Positions 33,083 through 38,772 are shown, counted from the first letter of the stretch. The stretch: DNA of 64,000 nucleotides from Acidimicrobiales bacterium (GCA_047638695.1 JBLINY010000002.1:11-64010); one strand, 5' to 3'. Notes: a model not told the origin generated them from the sequence alone. Program-made: numbers and translations.

Positions 33083-34312
33083 CTAGCCGGCCGCACCAAT
33101 CTCGACCCGCGGTGGTAGTGGCTGGTCTCGCTTGGTCGAGCGTTCGCGCTCCCTAGCGTCGTTGACAATGGCTCCGAGAGCCACCGATCCCATCGCCGAC
33201 ACAAATCCCTGGGCACCAACGCCGCTGGGCACGCCTGAGCCCATGGCCAGCCGGAGGCCATCGGTGGGCCAAAGACGTTGCGGGGTGTAGTCGCCACCCT
33301 CCACGAAATTCTGCCAGGCCCCGTTCACGCCGGACACTTGGAGCTGCCCCGATTGTCCCATTACGAAGTTGGACCCGAATGCCCAGTTGAGGGCATGGAG
33401 TTCGGAATCGGTCAGATCATCAAGAGAAGACCACGACCGGGAGGCCGGGATCACACCGGTAAGGAGAGCTGCCACCGCTTCGTACACACCCGGGCTGAGG
33501 TCGGAGCCAATGTCACTCCCCACCCTGTAGTCGCCACCGTAGGGGCCACCGACCATGACGTGGGGCTGCCCATCGCCATCGGTCCAGATCGTTCCTTCCG
33601 GCCTCTCGGCCCACACCGCGGCCCCGGCCGGGAACGCGACGTCTATGCCCGCTTCCAACATGACGTTGCGGATCACTGACCATGTGAGATCGACACCGTC
33701 AAAGGTTGCGCCAAGGGCAGCACCAACAACGAGCCGGAACGGCTCGAACGGTGGCAGCGGATGGCGTCGCAGGAGAGCGGCGGTTCGGCCGCTGAGATCG
33801 TCCTCGTCGGACCGCAGTTGGTCATAGGCCCGACGGGAACGATCGATGGCATCGTCTGCGTCTTGCTGTCGCTGCTCGGCGAAGTAGAGATCGATGCTGG
33901 TCGCTACATTGCTCTCGCCGCCGATCGCCAGCTCAGCTTTCAGATCGGCAACAGTCCGGCGGAGCCGCTTTGCCTCCTCGTAGTGATCGTTGGCCGCCTG
34001 CAGCTCACGGTCGGAGCGAATCAGTAAGTCCTCCAGCTCCTCGGCGTGACTGCCAAGCGCGTCAGCCACCGCAGCAATGGCGAGCGGTGTCGACTCGAGT
34101 TGGCGCGCCGTCTCGGCTGTGAGGTCTGCGAATGCCTGAGCCGCCATTCCCTCGAATCCGGGCTGCGTCGTGACGGCACTTCCAATCCGGTCGACGACAT
34201 CAACCAGTCGGTCGTGTTGGGCCACAAGGTCGGTTTCGAGCCGGCGGTAGACCTCGGGAGAACCCACGATGGCGTCGGTCTCGACGCGGAACACTTCGGT
34301 CCAGGTCTTCAT
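33083..34312 (-). CDS. hypothetical protein: helical WXG100-like N-terminal domain plus an unknown roughly 200 aa C-terminal domain
   Basis: The ATG at 34312 forms an ATGA overlap with the upstream stop. The N-terminus is MKTWTEVFRVETDAIVGSPEVYRRLETDL...QPGFEGMAAQAFADLTAETARQLE. F-E-G-x-AA-x-AF sits where WXG100 proteins carry W-x-G, and coiled-coil-like helices follow. The C-terminal half has no motif I recognise. Confidence 0.7.
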   Translation of the reverse strand: MKTWTEVFRVETDAIVGSPEVYRRLETDLVAQHDRLVDVVDRIGSAVTTQPGFEGMAAQAFADLTAETARQLESTPLAIAAVADALGSHAEELEDLLIRSDRELQAANDHYEEAKRLRRTVADLKAELAIGGESNVATSIDLYFAEQRQQDADDAIDRSRRAYDQLRSDEDDLSGRTAALLRRHPLPPFEPFRLVVGAALGATFDGVDLTWSVIRNVMLEAGIDVAFPAGAAVWAERPEGTIWTDGDGQPHVMVGGPYGGDYRVGSDIGSDLSPGVYEAVAALLTGVIPASRSWSSLDDLTDSELHALNWAFGSNFVMGQSGQLQVSGVNGAWQNFVEGGDYTPQRLWPTDGLRLAMGSGVPSGVGAQGFVSAMGSVALGAIVNDARERERSTKRDQPLPPRVEIGAAG

Positions 34313-34623
34313 CGCCCACTCCCGGCTGGACTCGGTACCAACGAGCCGATGTCCCACTGAGCGGCCAAGATCTGATCGGCGGCGACGAAGGCCTCCAGAG
34401 TTTCATCGATCGCCGTCTCGATGACCCTGACCTCGTCGGCCAACCGCTGTCGCATGCGATCGAGGTCGCCGATGAACTGGTCGAGCAGTTCCTGCATCTG
34501 GGGCGCACCGATCACAACCGGCAACGTGATCGCTTCAATTGTTTCCACCTCGTCGGCCAGCTGGTCGAACGACTGGGCCAACGAAGCAACCACTTCGTGT
34601 GTTACTGAGATCGTGCCGTTCAT
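34309..34623 (-). CDS. small helical protein, EspC/DUF2580-like or WXG100-like (104 aa)
   Basis: MNGTISVTHEVVASLAQSFDQLADEVETIEA... is all-helical in character and about 100 aa long. It has ATGA overlaps with both neighbours. Family assignment is tentative. Confidence 0.65.
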   Translation of the reverse strand: MNGTISVTHEVVASLAQSFDQLADEVETIEAITLPVVIGAPQMQELLDQFIGDLDRMRQRLADEVRVIETAIDETLEAFVAADQILAAQWDIGSLVPSPAGSGR

Positions 34624-35159
34624 GCCGCATCACGCCGCTGCTGCTCCTGGTGATCCCGCAGTTGTTTGGCTGTCAGGGCGGCGTGCGCCCGTTGGAGGTG
34701 GGGAGGCAGCTTCTCGACCTGCCTGAGTGTCAGTGGAGCCAGCTTCCTCCGAACAAGCAGAACCTCCCCCTGGCGGTGGGTGGCGTTGAACCGACTCGTG
34801 CGATCGACGGCCCGCCAGAACGGGCTGTTCTTACCACCGCGCATGCCGAGGCCGAGTTCGAACGCCCAGTTCACCGGGTCGAGATCGTATCCCTCGGGTT
34901 GGATCTCTAATCCCGCTGCTAGGCGCCGTAACAACAACGTCGCCGTTGGCCCCAGGATGCTGACCCAGTAGCGCTCGACATACAGGCTGCGAGGGTCATG
35001 GCCGAGTTGATCGAGCGTCGCGTCTTCCCAGGGCTTTACCTGCAACCGCTTCTCTGGGAACACAGGGCCCAGATCGTTGATGGGCCGAGGTATCGGCACC
35101 GCCGACATTGCCGGGCCTCCTGGAGGATTGGGTCCATCAGGTGGTGTCAGTTCGTTCAT
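34620..35159 (-). CDS. hypothetical protein, possible winged-helix DNA-binding protein (179 aa)
   Basis: Proline-rich N-terminus, then YVERYWVSILGPTATLLLRRLAAGL...VNWAFELGLG...SPFWRAVDRTSRFNATHRQGEVLLVRRKL. This looks like a helix-helix-wing pattern. The C-terminal helix is basic. First gene of the operon. Confidence 0.65.
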   Translation of the reverse strand: MNELTPPDGPNPPGGPAMSAVPIPRPINDLGPVFPEKRLQVKPWEDATLDQLGHDPRSLYVERYWVSILGPTATLLLRRLAAGLEIQPEGYDLDPVNWAFELGLGMRGGKNSPFWRAVDRTSRFNATHRQGEVLLVRRKLAPLTLRQVEKLPPHLQRAHAALTAKQLRDHQEQQRRDAA

Positions 35160-35330: not shown

Positions 35331-35843
35331 TCATTCCCCCCGGAAGTCGAGATCGGGCACGGAGCGATCGGTCATCTCGCGGGCGACCAGACGCAGCTCT
35401 TCGAGCGTTGGTCGACCGACGAAGTACCAGCCGTTGAAGATGTGGGAGATCGTGAGATCGGGCAACAAACCAAACGTGAATGGCACCGGCAGCGGCCCGT
35501 GGGTCGAATCGGTGGTCTCGCTGATCCCCAGCTGGTTCGTCAACGAGCGGTCTTCGTCGCTGAGGAAGTGGAACTTGGCTCCGAGCCCTGCCTTGAACGC
35601 TTCGAGAACCCGCGGCGGATCAACCGATATGGCCGCGACCTGTTGGTAGGCGACCTTGGTGGCGTCTGAGAACTGGACCAGTTCTCGCAGCTGAAGCTGT
35701 CATTTGGGTCACCAGGGCCCACGGAAGAATGCCAGGAACAGCGGTTGGCCTTGGGCCACCTCACCGATTGAGATGGCCTGGCCCCGGTCGTTGGTCAGTG
35801 TCACGTCGGGGAAGATGTCGCCGACCTGCAGGTTCAACGGCAT
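35331..35843 (-). CDS. PRX_like2 / redoxin (AhpC-TSA family) protein with two in-frame TGA codons at the CxxC positions: candidate UxxU selenoprotein
   Basis: A single 170-codon reverse frame reads MPLNLQVGDIFPDVTLTNDRGQAISIGEVAQGQPLFLAFFRGPW-TGA-PK-TGA-QLQLRELVQFSDATKVAYQQVAAISVDPPRVLEAFKAGLGAKFHFLSDEDR...NGWYFVGRPTLEELRLVAREM. The TGA codons are the complements of 35709-35711 and 35700-35702. The family motif is F-[FY]-R-G-x-W-C-P-x-C. The track shows only fragments (35331-35543). Confidence 0.7.
35668..35686 (-). promoter_or_regulatory. SECIS-like hairpin downstream of the two TGA codons
   Basis: Minus-strand RNA GAGAACU-GGUCC-AGUUCUC: a perfect 7 bp stem with a loop containing GGUC. It starts 13 nt after the second TGA and 22 nt after the first. 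Confidence 0.55.
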
Positions 35844-35848
35844 AACTT

Positions 35849-36988
35849 CTATGCCGACATTTGCCACGACGCATCGGCGGCGGGCAGATTGAAGAGGCGG
35901 GCCGTGTTGTCTCGGAAGATGTCCTGGTGCTGCTGCTCGGTGAGGTGTGAAGCCTGCTCGGCGATGAGCTCACGGGAACGGGGCCAGGTTGAGTCGGTGT
36001 GCGGAAAATCGCTGGCCCACAACAGGTGCGTGTGATCGACAAAATTCGTCGTGTGATAGGCGGTCACATCGTCTTGGAACGTAGCCCAGACATTGCTGCG
36101 GATGTACTCACTCGGCAGCTTCGAGAGACCTTCCAGAAGGCCATCTTCTGCGTTCATCCTGGCTGCGTGGTCCATGCGGTACATGTAGTGCGGCAGCCAG
36201 CCGGCGTCGCTCTCGGCAACCACAAGCTTCAAGTCGGGATGGCGTTCGAAAACACCACCCAACGTCATCATGCCAATCACGTCCTGGATTGCCCGAATGA
36301 TTCCGAGGAAGCTGTTGAGGTGATGACCACGGGGCTTGGTGTGGAGGCTGCCCGCTCGCGAGGTGAGGATGTGGAAACAGATCGGTAGATCGAGATCGAC
36401 TGCGCACTCCCAGAGAGCGTCGTAGTCAGCGTGGTCATAGTCCTCGTGGATTGGATCGCCCGGCATCATCATGCCGACCATTCCCATCTCCTTGGCCCGA
36501 ACGAAATCGGCGATCGCCCCGTCGACACTGAGAACTGCGGTCTGCGCCAGCCCGAAGATGCGGTCGGGAGCCTCGGCGCACATACCTTGCAGCCAACGGT
36601 TGTAGGCAAGCATGCAGGCATTCTTGTAATCTGGGTCGCGGTGCATGAACAGGCCCATGCCAACCGAGGCGTAGATCAACTCGGCGGCTAGACCATCCTG
36701 ATCCATGAACGGAACCCGTTCCTTGCCCAAGTATGCGGCAGGCCGAACGTCGTCAAACCGCATGGTCTTGGCTCTGGCATTGCGTTCCTTCGGGCCAAAG
36801 CCGGCCCCGTCGACGAAACCCAACGCGATCGGACGCTTCATGCCGGGCACGACGAATGCCTCGGTGCCATCGTCTTGTTCAATCACCCGCGGCGCGTCGT
36901 CGCGGTACTTCGGATCGATGAAGTCGACATAACAGTTCGGTGGTTCACATACGTGACCGTCAGCAGAAATGATGCCAGCAGGAATCAT
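35849..36988 (-). CDS. amidohydrolase-2 family protein (ACMSD-like metal-dependent hydrolase/decarboxylase)
   Basis: 379 aa, MIPAGIISADGHVCEP..., with SDFPHTDSTWP near the C-terminus. Its stop is 5 nt upstream of the redoxin ATG. Confidence 0.85.
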   Translation of the reverse strand: MIPAGIISADGHVCEPPNCYVDFIDPKYRDDAPRVIEQDDGTEAFVVPGMKRPIALGFVDGAGFGPKERNARAKTMRFDDVRPAAYLGKERVPFMDQDGLAAELIYASVGMGLFMHRDPDYKNACMLAYNRWLQGMCAEAPDRIFGLAQTAVLSVDGAIADFVRAKEMGMVGMMMPGDPIHEDYDHADYDALWECAVDLDLPICFHILTSRAGSLHTKPRGHHLNSFLGIIRAIQDVIGMMTLGGVFERHPDLKLVVAESDAGWLPHYMYRMDHAARMNAEDGLLEGLSKLPSEYIRSNVWATFQDDVTAYHTTNFVDHTHLLWASDFPHTDSTWPRSRELIAEQASHLTEQQHQDIFRDNTARLFNLPAADASWQMSA

Positions 36989-37050: not shown

Positions 37051-38772
37051 TCAAGCGCTCGTGGATTGAGGACCGCGAATGAGTTGTCCCGGCATGGACC
37101 CCGTTGCCTCACCGTCGCGGTAGATCACTTCGCCACGCTTGATCGTGGCCAGGTAGCCCTCGGCCCGCTGGATGAGTCGACGCCCGCCCGCCGGTAGGTC
37201 GTATGCCATCTCGGGAGCTCGCAGCGTCAAGTTCTCGAAGTCGATCACGTTGACGTCAGCCAACATGCCCGCTTCCAAGGTGCCCCGGTCGTCCAACCCG
37301 ACCTGACGAGCGGTGTCGCGGCACTGACGCTGGATTACGAGCTCCAGGGGCAACCGCTCGCCTCGCTCGCGGTCGCGCACCCAGTGGGTGAGCATGTAGG
37401 TGGGGAAGCTGGCGTCGCAGATCACGCCGCAGTGAGCGCCGCCGTCGGAAAGCCCAGGCACCGTGCCCTCGGCCAGGTTCATTTCTCGCACCACGTCATG
37501 GTTGCCGTCGGTGAAGTTGGCAAGCGGGAACAACATGAGTTCGCGGCCGTCGCGCTCGAGCAGCATGTCGTAAGCCATCTCGACGGGCGGAACTCCTGCC
37601 GCTTCGGCCCGATCTTTGATGCTGTCCTCGGGTGCGGGCTCGTAGTCCGGAGGATCGCCAAGAGGGAACATCTTGTGGAACGACTGCGCCACCATGCCCG
37701 ACATACCCCTGGTGCGCGACGCATGTTCCTCAATCAACTTGGCTCGCATTTCCGGGTCGCGCATGCGATCGACCCGCGCATCGAGGTCAAGGTCCGCCAG
37801 TTCTTTGCGGTAGGTGGGGCAAGTAATGAACGGATGCATCGACGACTGCAACCCAAGCAGGAGGCTCACCGGGCGGATGGCGACCTGAGCGGTGAGGTCG
37901 GTCCCACCGGCCCTGGCATCCTGGATACGGTCGAGCACCTTGCGCCAGTGGTCGGGGCTCTGATCGTTCTGCACCAGCAGGATCGACAGCGGCGCCGAGG
38001 CATGGTCGGCCATGCCCTCGAAGATCTCGAACTCAACGTCGAGATCGACAAAGTCGGAGACGATCTCGAGGTGCCCGAAGCCCTTGTCGGCCAACGCAGC
38101 CGCAATTCCCCACAGCTCATCGGGGGTGTTGGTGAGCGTCGGGATCTGGTTGCCCTCTTTGTCGCGGTGGTTGATCGTGCGAGAGGTGGTGAATCCGAGT
38201 GCTCCGGCCTCGAGCGCCTCGCCGGTCAGCTCACGCATCGTGGCGATCTCTTCGGGTGTGGCCACTTCGGTGTGATCGCGGCCGCGGTCGCCCATGACGT
38301 AGACCCGCAATGCCGAGTGGGGCATCTGGGCCCCGACATCGATGGCGTGAGGGATGGCCTCGACGGCGTCGAGGTACTCGGGAAACGACTCCCATGTGAA
38401 GTCAACGCCCTCGGACAGGGCGGCGCCAGGGATGTCTTCGACCCCTTCCATCACGCTGATCAGGAACTCATGTCGGTCGGGTCGAACGGGAGCGAATCCG
38501 ACACCGCAGTTGCCCATCACAATCGACGTGACGCCATGCCACGACGACGGGGTGATGGCGGGATCCCACAACACCTGACCGTCGTAGTGTGTGTGAATAT
38601 CCACAAAGCCAGGCGTGACCATCTGGCCCGCGGCATCGATTTCCTCGCGGCCTTGGTCGGGAACATCGCCGACGATGGAGATGCGATCTCCGTCGATAGC
38701 CACGTCGGCTGTTCGGGCCGCGACGCCCGTTCCGTCGACAACCCGGCCGTTACGAATAACTAGATCGTGCAT
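37051..38772 (-). CDS. N-acyl-D-amino-acid deacylase (D-aminoacylase) family amidohydrolase
   Basis: 573 aa with [16 protein letters not shown]...[24 protein letters not shown] lies upstream of the ATG. Confidence 0.9.

Follow-up and report, generated by a model that had tools for sequence, protein, structure and literature searches.

Here we describe a gene on the minus strand of a 64,000-nucleotide stretch of DNA from an Acidimicrobiales bacterium (the window, by which we mean the whole stretch that was analysed), in which two in-frame UGA codons are followed by a short RNA hairpin resembling a bacterial selenocysteine insertion sequence (SECIS). The gene is a 170-codon open reading frame (ORF) at 35843..35331 that begins with ATG at 35843, ends at an ordinary TGA stop (35333-35331), and is broken by in-frame TGAs at codon 45 (35711-35709; UGA1) and codon 48 (35702-35700; UGA2). 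Translation around the redox box reads ...LFLAFFRGPW-U-PK-U-QLQLRELVQFSD..., with the motif W44-U45-P46-K47-U48. The hairpin, GAGAACUG-GUC-CAGUUCUC, lies downstream of both UGAs at 35686..35668 on the minus strand. By comparing this locus with its relatives, we consider it likely that both UGAs of this W-U-P-K-U redoxin are recoded as selenocysteine (Sec) through one minimal SECIS. The designation of 35331..35843 as a putative selenoprotein gene is based on translation, Pfam family PF00578, alignments to PDB entries, and full-length, in-frame conservation in 48 orthologues.

With both TGA positions written as Cys, the protein matches the Pfam families AhpC/TSA (PF00578; 68.5 bits versus a cut-off of 26, E = 6e-19) and Redoxin (PF08534; 58.6 bits versus 26.6), and its sequence matches in the PDB include BCP (2cx3), ResA (3c71), and PrxQ-like chains. 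From these Pfam and PDB matches the product is predicted to be an AhpC/TSA thioredoxin-fold, peroxiredoxin-like oxidoreductase. W-U-P-K-U aligns with the ResA redox box W-C-P-H-C, such that Sec45 corresponds to the N-terminal nucleophilic Cys of the W-C-x-x-C box and, in peroxiredoxins (Prx), to the Thr/Ser of T-x-x-C, and U48 corresponds to the peroxidatic Cys of BCP (FSPVC) and to the second Cys of ResA. Both TGAs therefore sit on redox-box positions. The canonical BCP/PrxQ motif P-x-x-x-T/S-x-x-Cp is absent, its Thr/Ser site being Sec45, and the NCBIfam BCP model scores the window protein at 42.9 bits versus its threshold of 140. Since the peroxidatic position (48) is Asp or Glu in the Cys-type relatives described below, the conserved catalytic residue would be position 45, as in ResA/TlpA-type enzymes. 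With the Thr/Ser of T-x-x-C replaced and an acidic residue at the peroxidatic site of its Cys-type relatives, the redoxin is, judged by its residues, not a canonical peroxiredoxin. BCP/PrxQ and ResA/TlpA, Cys enzymes of solved structure, have in common with it the fold and alignable active-site segments; the window redoxin differs from BCP and ResA in carrying Sec for Cys, with Sec45 at the Prx Thr/Ser site, and from BCP in that the residue conserved in its lineage is position 45 and not the peroxidatic position.

A protein search returned 317 relatives, and the best 120 of these 317 are all C-terminal fragments of 97-123 aa that start after codon 48, from which it follows that gene callers stop at the TGAs throughout the family. 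On the annotated contigs (L081-L087), public gene calls give a 44-aa ORF plus a second ORF of roughly 115 aa, within the range 97-123 aa, termed 'peroxiredoxin' or 'hypothetical protein', and no source among these contigs names a selenoprotein. If the present reading is correct, such split fragments of 44 aa and ~100-120 aa should be annotated as one 170-aa selenoprotein. A scan of GTDB with one genome per species yielded 80 loci in two groups, namely 48 close orthologues and 31 distant relatives. The close orthologues are 59-88% identical to the window protein over the full length, in frame, and bear titles assigning them to Acidimicrobiia, Acidobacteriota, Latescibacterota, Myxococcota, SAR324, Binatia, Spirochaetales, and Pseudomonadota (about eight phylum-level labels). 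Two of them, L017 and L018, do not differ in sequence and come from separate contigs of one Acidobacteriota metagenome-assembled genome (MAG), reflecting duplication or assembly redundancy, and another (L026), titled 'uncultured Enterobacteriaceae', clusters with Binatia sequences, which suggests mis-binning.

Codon 45 is TGA in 48 of the 48 orthologues, and codon 48 is TGA in 33 and TGC or TGT in 15, which with the window gives TGA in 49/49 family members at the first position and in 34/49 at the second. The nucleotide after UGA1 is C in all 49 sequences, and C follows UGA2 in 33 of the 34 that carry it. On a tree built without the motif and stem codons, codon 48 shows at least four switches between TGA and TGY (one each in Latescibacterota and Acidobacteriota, two in Acidimicrobiia), with the hairpin unchanged. 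The pattern generally expected of selenoprotein genes is thus present: an in-frame TGA stands where homologues have Cys (at codon 45, Cys is found in 42 relatives with F-C-P-R-D or C-P-K-E boxes, here CPRD and CPKE), and the reading frame is conserved on both its N-terminal and C-terminal sides. These data also bear on the alternative that the TGAs are not recoded at all and reflect a pseudogene, a sequencing error, or a reassigned TGA. It agrees with this alternative that no annotation source treats the gene as intact; however, 48 independent assemblies and over 300 protein clusters have the same TGAs, the two halves of the gene stay in frame at 59-88% identity, and both TGAs fall on redox-box positions. 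As to reassignment, TGA ends 19 of the 28 long ORFs in the window, including the redoxin gene itself; it is otherwise an ordinary stop in the source genome and has not been reassigned. The conserved orthologues and the ordinary TGA stops effectively refute these explanations, and we give them next to no credence.

An earlier note on this DNA had described, from the sequence alone, a minus-strand UGA CCC AAA UGA followed by a SECIS-like hairpin. The RNA does read UGA CCC AAA UGA CAG CUU CAG CUG CGA GAA CUG GUC CAG UUC UCA GAC, with both TGAs in the frame of the 170-codon ORF, and refolding reproduced the two forms of the stem that had been described (an 8-bp stem closed by 3 nt, or a 7-bp stem with GGUCC as its loop), with an energy of -10.3 kcal/mol. 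The 5' arm, GAGAACUG, occupies 35679..35686, and the 3' arm, CAGUUCUC, which includes the Phe58 codon TTC, occupies 35668..35675; the six core pairs use 35685-35680 and 35674-35669. The apical loop GUC (35676..35678) is the Val56 codon, and, counted from the U of each UGA, its G-U falls at +34/+35 for UGA1 and +25/+26 for UGA2, exactly as had been numbered; the distance to the loop is 29-30 nt for UGA1 and 20-21 nt for UGA2. The stem is separated from UGA2 by the spacer CAG CUU CAG CUG (codons 49-52, 35688..35699).

The same note held that such a hairpin is hard to explain by protein-coding constraints, and proposed folding-energy controls. For the window sequence taken by itself the outcome is modest and the claim too strong. 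Among dinucleotide shuffles of the 27-nt hairpin, 5 of 200 were equally good (z = -2.3), and segments of 52-72 nt gave z = -1.35 to -1.74. When the peptide was kept fixed and codons were drawn from local codon usage, the six-pair core survived in 28% of the synonymous resamplings of the window, and 2.2% were at least as stable as the observed hairpin; over the family members the corresponding means were 0.36 and 0.16. The reason is visible in the codons: [E/Q]-L-V-[E/Q]-F is written GAR YUN GUN SAR UUY, from which the inner four pairs arise almost automatically. The hairpin might accordingly have no RNA function and be a by-product of the self-complementary codons of E-L-V-[Q/E]-F, with recoding dependent on something else. 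That 28-36% of fixed-peptide resamplings keep the core, that the shuffle scores are modest, that Rfam has no match, and that Cys-type relatives with the similar peptide Q-L-V-E-F reach five of the six pairs all favour this explanation, and its weight is decided by the family.

The Sec-type alignment consists of the window and its 48 orthologues (49 segments) and is gap-free, with the core formed by columns 33-38 and 44-49. All six core pairs are standard pairs in 49/49 sequences, without a single broken cell, against an expected probability averaging 0.36 per sequence with the peptide fixed. Double changes are seen at three of the six column pairs: G-C to A-U at columns 33/49 (G-C 28, A-U 17, G-U 2), A-U to G-C at 36/46 (A-U 31, G-U 14, G-C 2), and C-G to U-A at 37/45 (C-G 42, U-A 5). 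The retention of the hairpin with compensatory changes among TGA-containing orthologues, put forward in the earlier note as a test, is therefore what was found. The covariation score is 0.237 compared with 0.160 after shuffling (0 of 500 shuffles reach 0.237) and at most 0.167 in slid registers. RNAalifold independently arrives at this stem and predicts no other consensus helix within +65 nt.

Several of these changes couple codons that encode different residues. Ser59 (UCN) pairs with CGA at codon 53, and His59 (CAY) with CGG, AGG, or UCG, so that, across the Ser/His replacement, codon 53 always ends in a base that matches the one with which codon 59 begins. Phe58>Leu (CUC) occurs only with GAG at Glu54 (GAA>GAG), and CAA at Gln57 occurs only with UUG or UUC at codon 55, CUG>UUG accompanying CAG>CAA in 5/5 cases. 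The double changes thus include non-synonymous ones (F58L with GAA>GAG, and Ser/His59 with CGA/CGG). Phe58 is TTC in 47/47 sequences (35671-35673; columns 46-48), compared with about 20% TTT in other Phe columns; as TTT would still allow a G-U pair, selection seems to favour the G-C pair or the identity of the base itself. Strong codon preferences are also seen at Gln49 (CAG in 44/44), Leu52 (CTG in 44/49), and Val56 (GTC in 40/49). The reduced synonymous variation in the spacer (35688-35699, minus strand) is not explained by the stem. A 3-bp CAG/CUG mini-stem directly behind UGA2 has its pairs in 43-46 of 47 sequences; as an element, this 3-4 bp structure consists mostly of two conserved codons and is too weak to call. 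A long-range GACC/GGUC helix in the minimum-energy fold of the window was discarded because it is not conserved.

At the level of the family, then, coding constraint is insufficient to explain the hairpin, and to that extent the earlier claim stands. The RNA structure appears to be largely written into E-L-V-Q/E-F and fine-tuned at synonymous sites and through coupled amino-acid changes. Against a by-product of the codons stand the 49/49 cores far above the 0.36 expected, the uniform TTC at Phe58, the matching of codons 53 and 59 across Ser/His, the pairing of F58L with GAA>GAG and of CUG>UUG with CAG>CAA, the absence of any other conserved helix within +65 nt, and the fact that Glu54 is invariant only in the Sec-type clade. 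We regard a hairpin without RNA function as very unlikely.

Comparison with Cys-type relatives points the same way. The 31 distant GTDB relatives (40-48% identity) carry a single Cys in F-C-P-R-D. Closer Cys45 forms were sought by scanning a metagenome collection for DNA encoding F-R-G-P-W-C-P-K, which gave 11 true relatives (42-51% identity), all with C-P-K-E. The full core stem is found in 1/31 CPRD and 0/11 CPKE genes, or 1/42 Cys-type genes compared with 49/49 Sec-type genes, as expected from the proposal that Cys homologues would lack it. The mean local energy of the 31 CPRD relatives is -3.6 kcal/mol versus -8.8 kcal/mol for Sec-type sequences (Mann-Whitney p = 4e-13, not corrected for phylogeny). 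Given the conservation and covariation in Sec-type genes and the loss in Cys-type genes, the hairpin at 35686..35668 is supported as a SECIS-type element.

The single Cys-type gene with the core, in a Rubrobacterales MAG (CPRD; L071:1354-1860), has an in-register hairpin, GGGGACUG-GUC-CGGUUCC (-8.4 kcal/mol), which could be what remains of a SECIS after Sec gave way to Cys, or a chance occurrence. Four near-identical CPKE metagenome genes (L092, L098, L100, and L103) have a different 5-bp hairpin over the homologous codons, GCAGC-UGGUCCC-GCUGC, whose loop contains GGUC; the local fold reaches -26 kcal/mol over the 66 nt after the Cys codon. No CxxC box occurs among the Cys-type loci (L048-L080 and L092-L109), where Cys45 always goes with an acidic residue at 48 (C-P-R-D or C-P-K-E), and among the relatives examined a second redox residue at 48, Sec or Cys, exists only in the Sec45 clade.

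The published consensus for bacterial SECIS (bSECIS) elements specifies (i) an upper stem of 4-16 bp capped by an apical loop of 3-9 nt, (ii) a G as the first or second loop nucleotide, with G or U usually next, (iii) a UGA-to-loop distance of 16-37 nt, and (iv) a minimum free energy of -7.5 kcal/mol or below (PMC13188914). Family loops are 3 or 5 nt and stems 6-10 bp in 48/49 sequences, and a G is at the first or second loop position in 48/49 (loops GUC, GGUCG, CGUGC, GUU, and GUA). The earlier note had given the 16-37 nt range correctly, and both distances fall inside it with no indel in 49 sequences. The window hairpin lies below the energy limit, as do 44/49 of the sequences, the five weaker ones being A/U-rich SAR324-like variants. 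The tetranucleotide GGUC had been likened to the apical loop of the E. coli fdhF SECIS, and the real E. coli sequence bears this out (UGA at codon 140, loop G22-G23-U24-C25). Across the family the likeness is narrower: the G-U is invariant (49/49, in a Val codon GUN), and the leading G and the C are not.

Members of the family with UxxC have an identical hairpin at an identical distance; the element therefore would serve UGA1 at 29-30 nt, and the gain of UGA2 would have required no change in it. With the bSECIS features present for both UGAs and one conserved helix, the proposal of one SECIS-like hairpin for two UGAs is supported. Recoding would proceed by the bacterial Sec pathway, in which SelB-GTP-Sec-tRNA(Sec) is tethered to an mRNA hairpin, here a single minimal SECIS (a 6-8 bp stem with a G-U apical loop) placed in the codons for (R)-E-L-V-Q-F-(S). 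With UGA1 in the A site, the stem would begin 22 nt downstream and the loop 29-30 nt downstream; three codons on, with UGA2 in the A site, the still-folded stem would lie 13 nt and the loop 20-21 nt downstream, close to the geometry of fdhF (18 nt). A second SelB ternary complex would have to bind the same hairpin, implying re-loading between the two insertions, and the C after each UGA may make the context a weak one for release factors. The product would form a diselenide (UxxU) or, in UxxC variants, a selenenylsulfide, with residue 45 as the indispensable nucleophile and residue 48 as its resolving partner.

Several observations weigh against decoding of both UGAs through this hairpin. Judged from the window sequence alone, it exceeds chance only weakly; the peptide R-E-L-V-Q-F-S already encodes much of the single-sequence structure; and Rfam gave nothing relevant, either for the whole window at gathering thresholds or for 35560-35800 at E <= 10, there being no Rfam model that captures the minimal hairpin at 35686..35668. 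The double changes follow clades on the tree and reduce to about 4-5 independent events, a small number. No family member has UGA at codon 48 alone, which leaves the service of the hairpin to UGA2 without direct support. Searches with E. coli SelA, SelB, and SelD (tblastn) found no selA, selB, or selD, neither in the 64-kb window nor in the 777 kb of flanks that were fetched around the loci, an absence that over this span is neutral as to the Sec competence of the source genome; tRNA scans of the window and of 3 kb on each side of the 48 orthologues likewise gave none, hence no linked selC or selC*. Furthermore, the UGA-SECIS distance is reported to be strict in E. coli (Heider et al. 1992; Liu et al. 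1998); since the distances of the two UGAs differ by 9 nt, SelB would therefore have to be more tolerant, or the efficiencies at the two sites unequal.

The identity of the inserted residue must also be weighed. The hairpin could be a real SelB-dependent element and one or both UGAs, most plausibly UGA2, could be read as Cys by a SelC*-type tRNA (tRNA-ReC), in which case the mature protein would be U-x-x-C or C-x-x-C and form no diselenide. A recent study finds an enrichment of tRNA-ReC-like genes where genomes carry UXXU-type hydrogenases (~56% versus 2.3%), and cautions that Cys may then be inserted at either UGA despite a SECIS (PMC13582414). The repeated toggling of codon 48 between TGA and TGY likewise indicates that Cys is functionally acceptable there. 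On the other hand, the lack of any tRNA in the window or within 3 kb of the orthologues gives this no local support, the close family has TGA and no Cys at codon 45 (49/49), an argument that Sec itself is needed at that position at least, and a TGA48 that meant mere Cys would carry a recoding cost without gain, yet it persists in 34/49 sequences across phyla. We thus hold decoding as Cys to be improbable, although less so than a hairpin without function, and retain Sec at both positions as the likely reading.

One SECIS acting on two UGAs is an arrangement already known from SelL (Shchedrina et al. 2007, PNAS 104:13919, as cited in PMC4989117, PMC2397514, and PMC2398784), and UxxC/UxxU Prx-like selenoproteins are listed in reviews; the present case leaves current understanding unchanged, the principle having been established with SelL in 2007. 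In bacterial SelL the SECIS reportedly lies in the coding region, at a distance supporting either or both UGAs, which would also be the logic of the window locus. A single SECIS in SelL is described as acting on two UGAs two codons apart (PMC4989117), and SelL is a Prx-like UxxU protein with a demonstrated diselenide, found in fish, invertebrates, and marine bacteria (PMC2397514). The window redoxin resembles it in the Prx-like thioredoxin fold, the UxxU box, and the single SECIS, a functional resemblance that is not evidence of orthology, and differs in that the present family is found mostly in MAGs of Acidimicrobiia, Acidobacteriota, Myxococcota, Latescibacterota, and SAR324. The NCBIfam model NF040769 ('SelL-related redox protein'), used as a proxy in place of authentic SelL sequences, scores the window protein at 36.9 bits versus a cut-off of 120, about the level of the BCP model, and the relatives at 21-42 bits; one CPKE relative has no NCBIfam match of any kind. 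When the window protein and its relatives were scored, no NCBIfam model claimed the redoxin family.

Also comparable are the Prx-like thiol:disulfide oxidoreductases of PF00578, with UxxC or UxxU and one or two Sec, that are listed in reviews (PMC9312934, PMC13188914). The window redoxin is like the Prx-like selenoproteins of Kryukov & Gladyshev 2004 in its Pfam domain, in its UxxC/UxxU motifs, and in its status as a computational prediction. The reference for that class is a Geobacter protein (WP_010940744.1), and the GTDB species scan recovered no Geobacter locus with the signature motifs HGPLPVP[FY]T / GWY[FM][VA]GRPT of the present family, which therefore is probably a separate subfamily within the broad Prx-like class. 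UxxU has been noted in a Prx-like family of the GOS data; in the available part of the GOS supplement WUPKU was not found, only distantly similar WUPKC Prx-like reads being present. The window gene is, on these comparisons, probably a further, unannotated Prx-like selenoprotein, new at the level of the subfamily. That it stands for an uncatalogued, widely distributed bacterial diselenide (UxxU) redoxin family distinct from SelL and not covered by any NCBIfam model, with Sec45 obligatory and position 48 toggling between Sec and Cys at least four times over the same minimal 6-8 bp SECIS, is a more tentative proposal, which we regard as possible rather than probable.

Comparison can be extended to other Sec systems. 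The element is like the fdhF SECIS in its G-G-U-C loop with the essential G-U, in the C-A that follows the UGA, and in its location within the coding region directly downstream of UGA. The fdhF SECIS is a ~40-nt two-part stem-loop that starts at the UGA, has a bulged U, and holds its loop 18 nt from a single UGA; in contrast, the window element has a stem of 6-8 bp, no conserved lower helix, and a loop 20-21 and 29-30 nt from two UGAs. For UXXU Group 4 [NiFeSe] hydrogenases, the authors propose that one downstream SECIS decodes both UGAs (PMC13582414, 2026). The redoxin has in common with these hydrogenases and with Lokiarchaeota PrxL.1 that two Sec replace both Cys of a CxxC and that UXXU and single-Sec forms share a SECIS architecture. 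It differs from the hydrogenases in protein family and in their Ni-ligand chemistry (PMC13582414), and from PrxL.1, which is archaeal and has a eukaryote-like SECIS outside the coding sequence (PMC4989117).

If both UGAs are indeed decoded as Sec, the family constitutes a natural experiment in which one bacterial SECIS acts at spacings 9 nt apart (20-21 and 29-30 nt), and offers a compact system for studying the re-loading of SelB across two Sec insertions three codons apart. A short coding-region hairpin would accompany one (UxxC) or two (UxxU) UGAs with its position unchanged, which is relevant to how much latitude the UGA-SECIS distance has outside E. coli. The locus would also be a case of dual coding, in which an RNA element is written into, and co-evolves with, a conserved peptide.

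The genes around the redoxin were also inspected. The window neighbours (Amidohydro_2, Amidohydro_3, PriA-like, and others) were not found beside the orthologues, and the sampled neighbourhoods have no partner in common. Downstream of the redoxin are three consecutive ORFs (33083-35159, minus strand; 179, 104, and 424 aa) with no Pfam match at E <= 1e-4; the 104-aa ORF shares a few bases with the ORF on either side, suggestive of an operon of unknown function. Upstream, an Amidohydro_3 gene lies at 37051-38772, and an Amidohydro_2-family gene (35849-36988, minus strand) ends 5 nt before the redoxin ATG and is probably co-transcribed with it.

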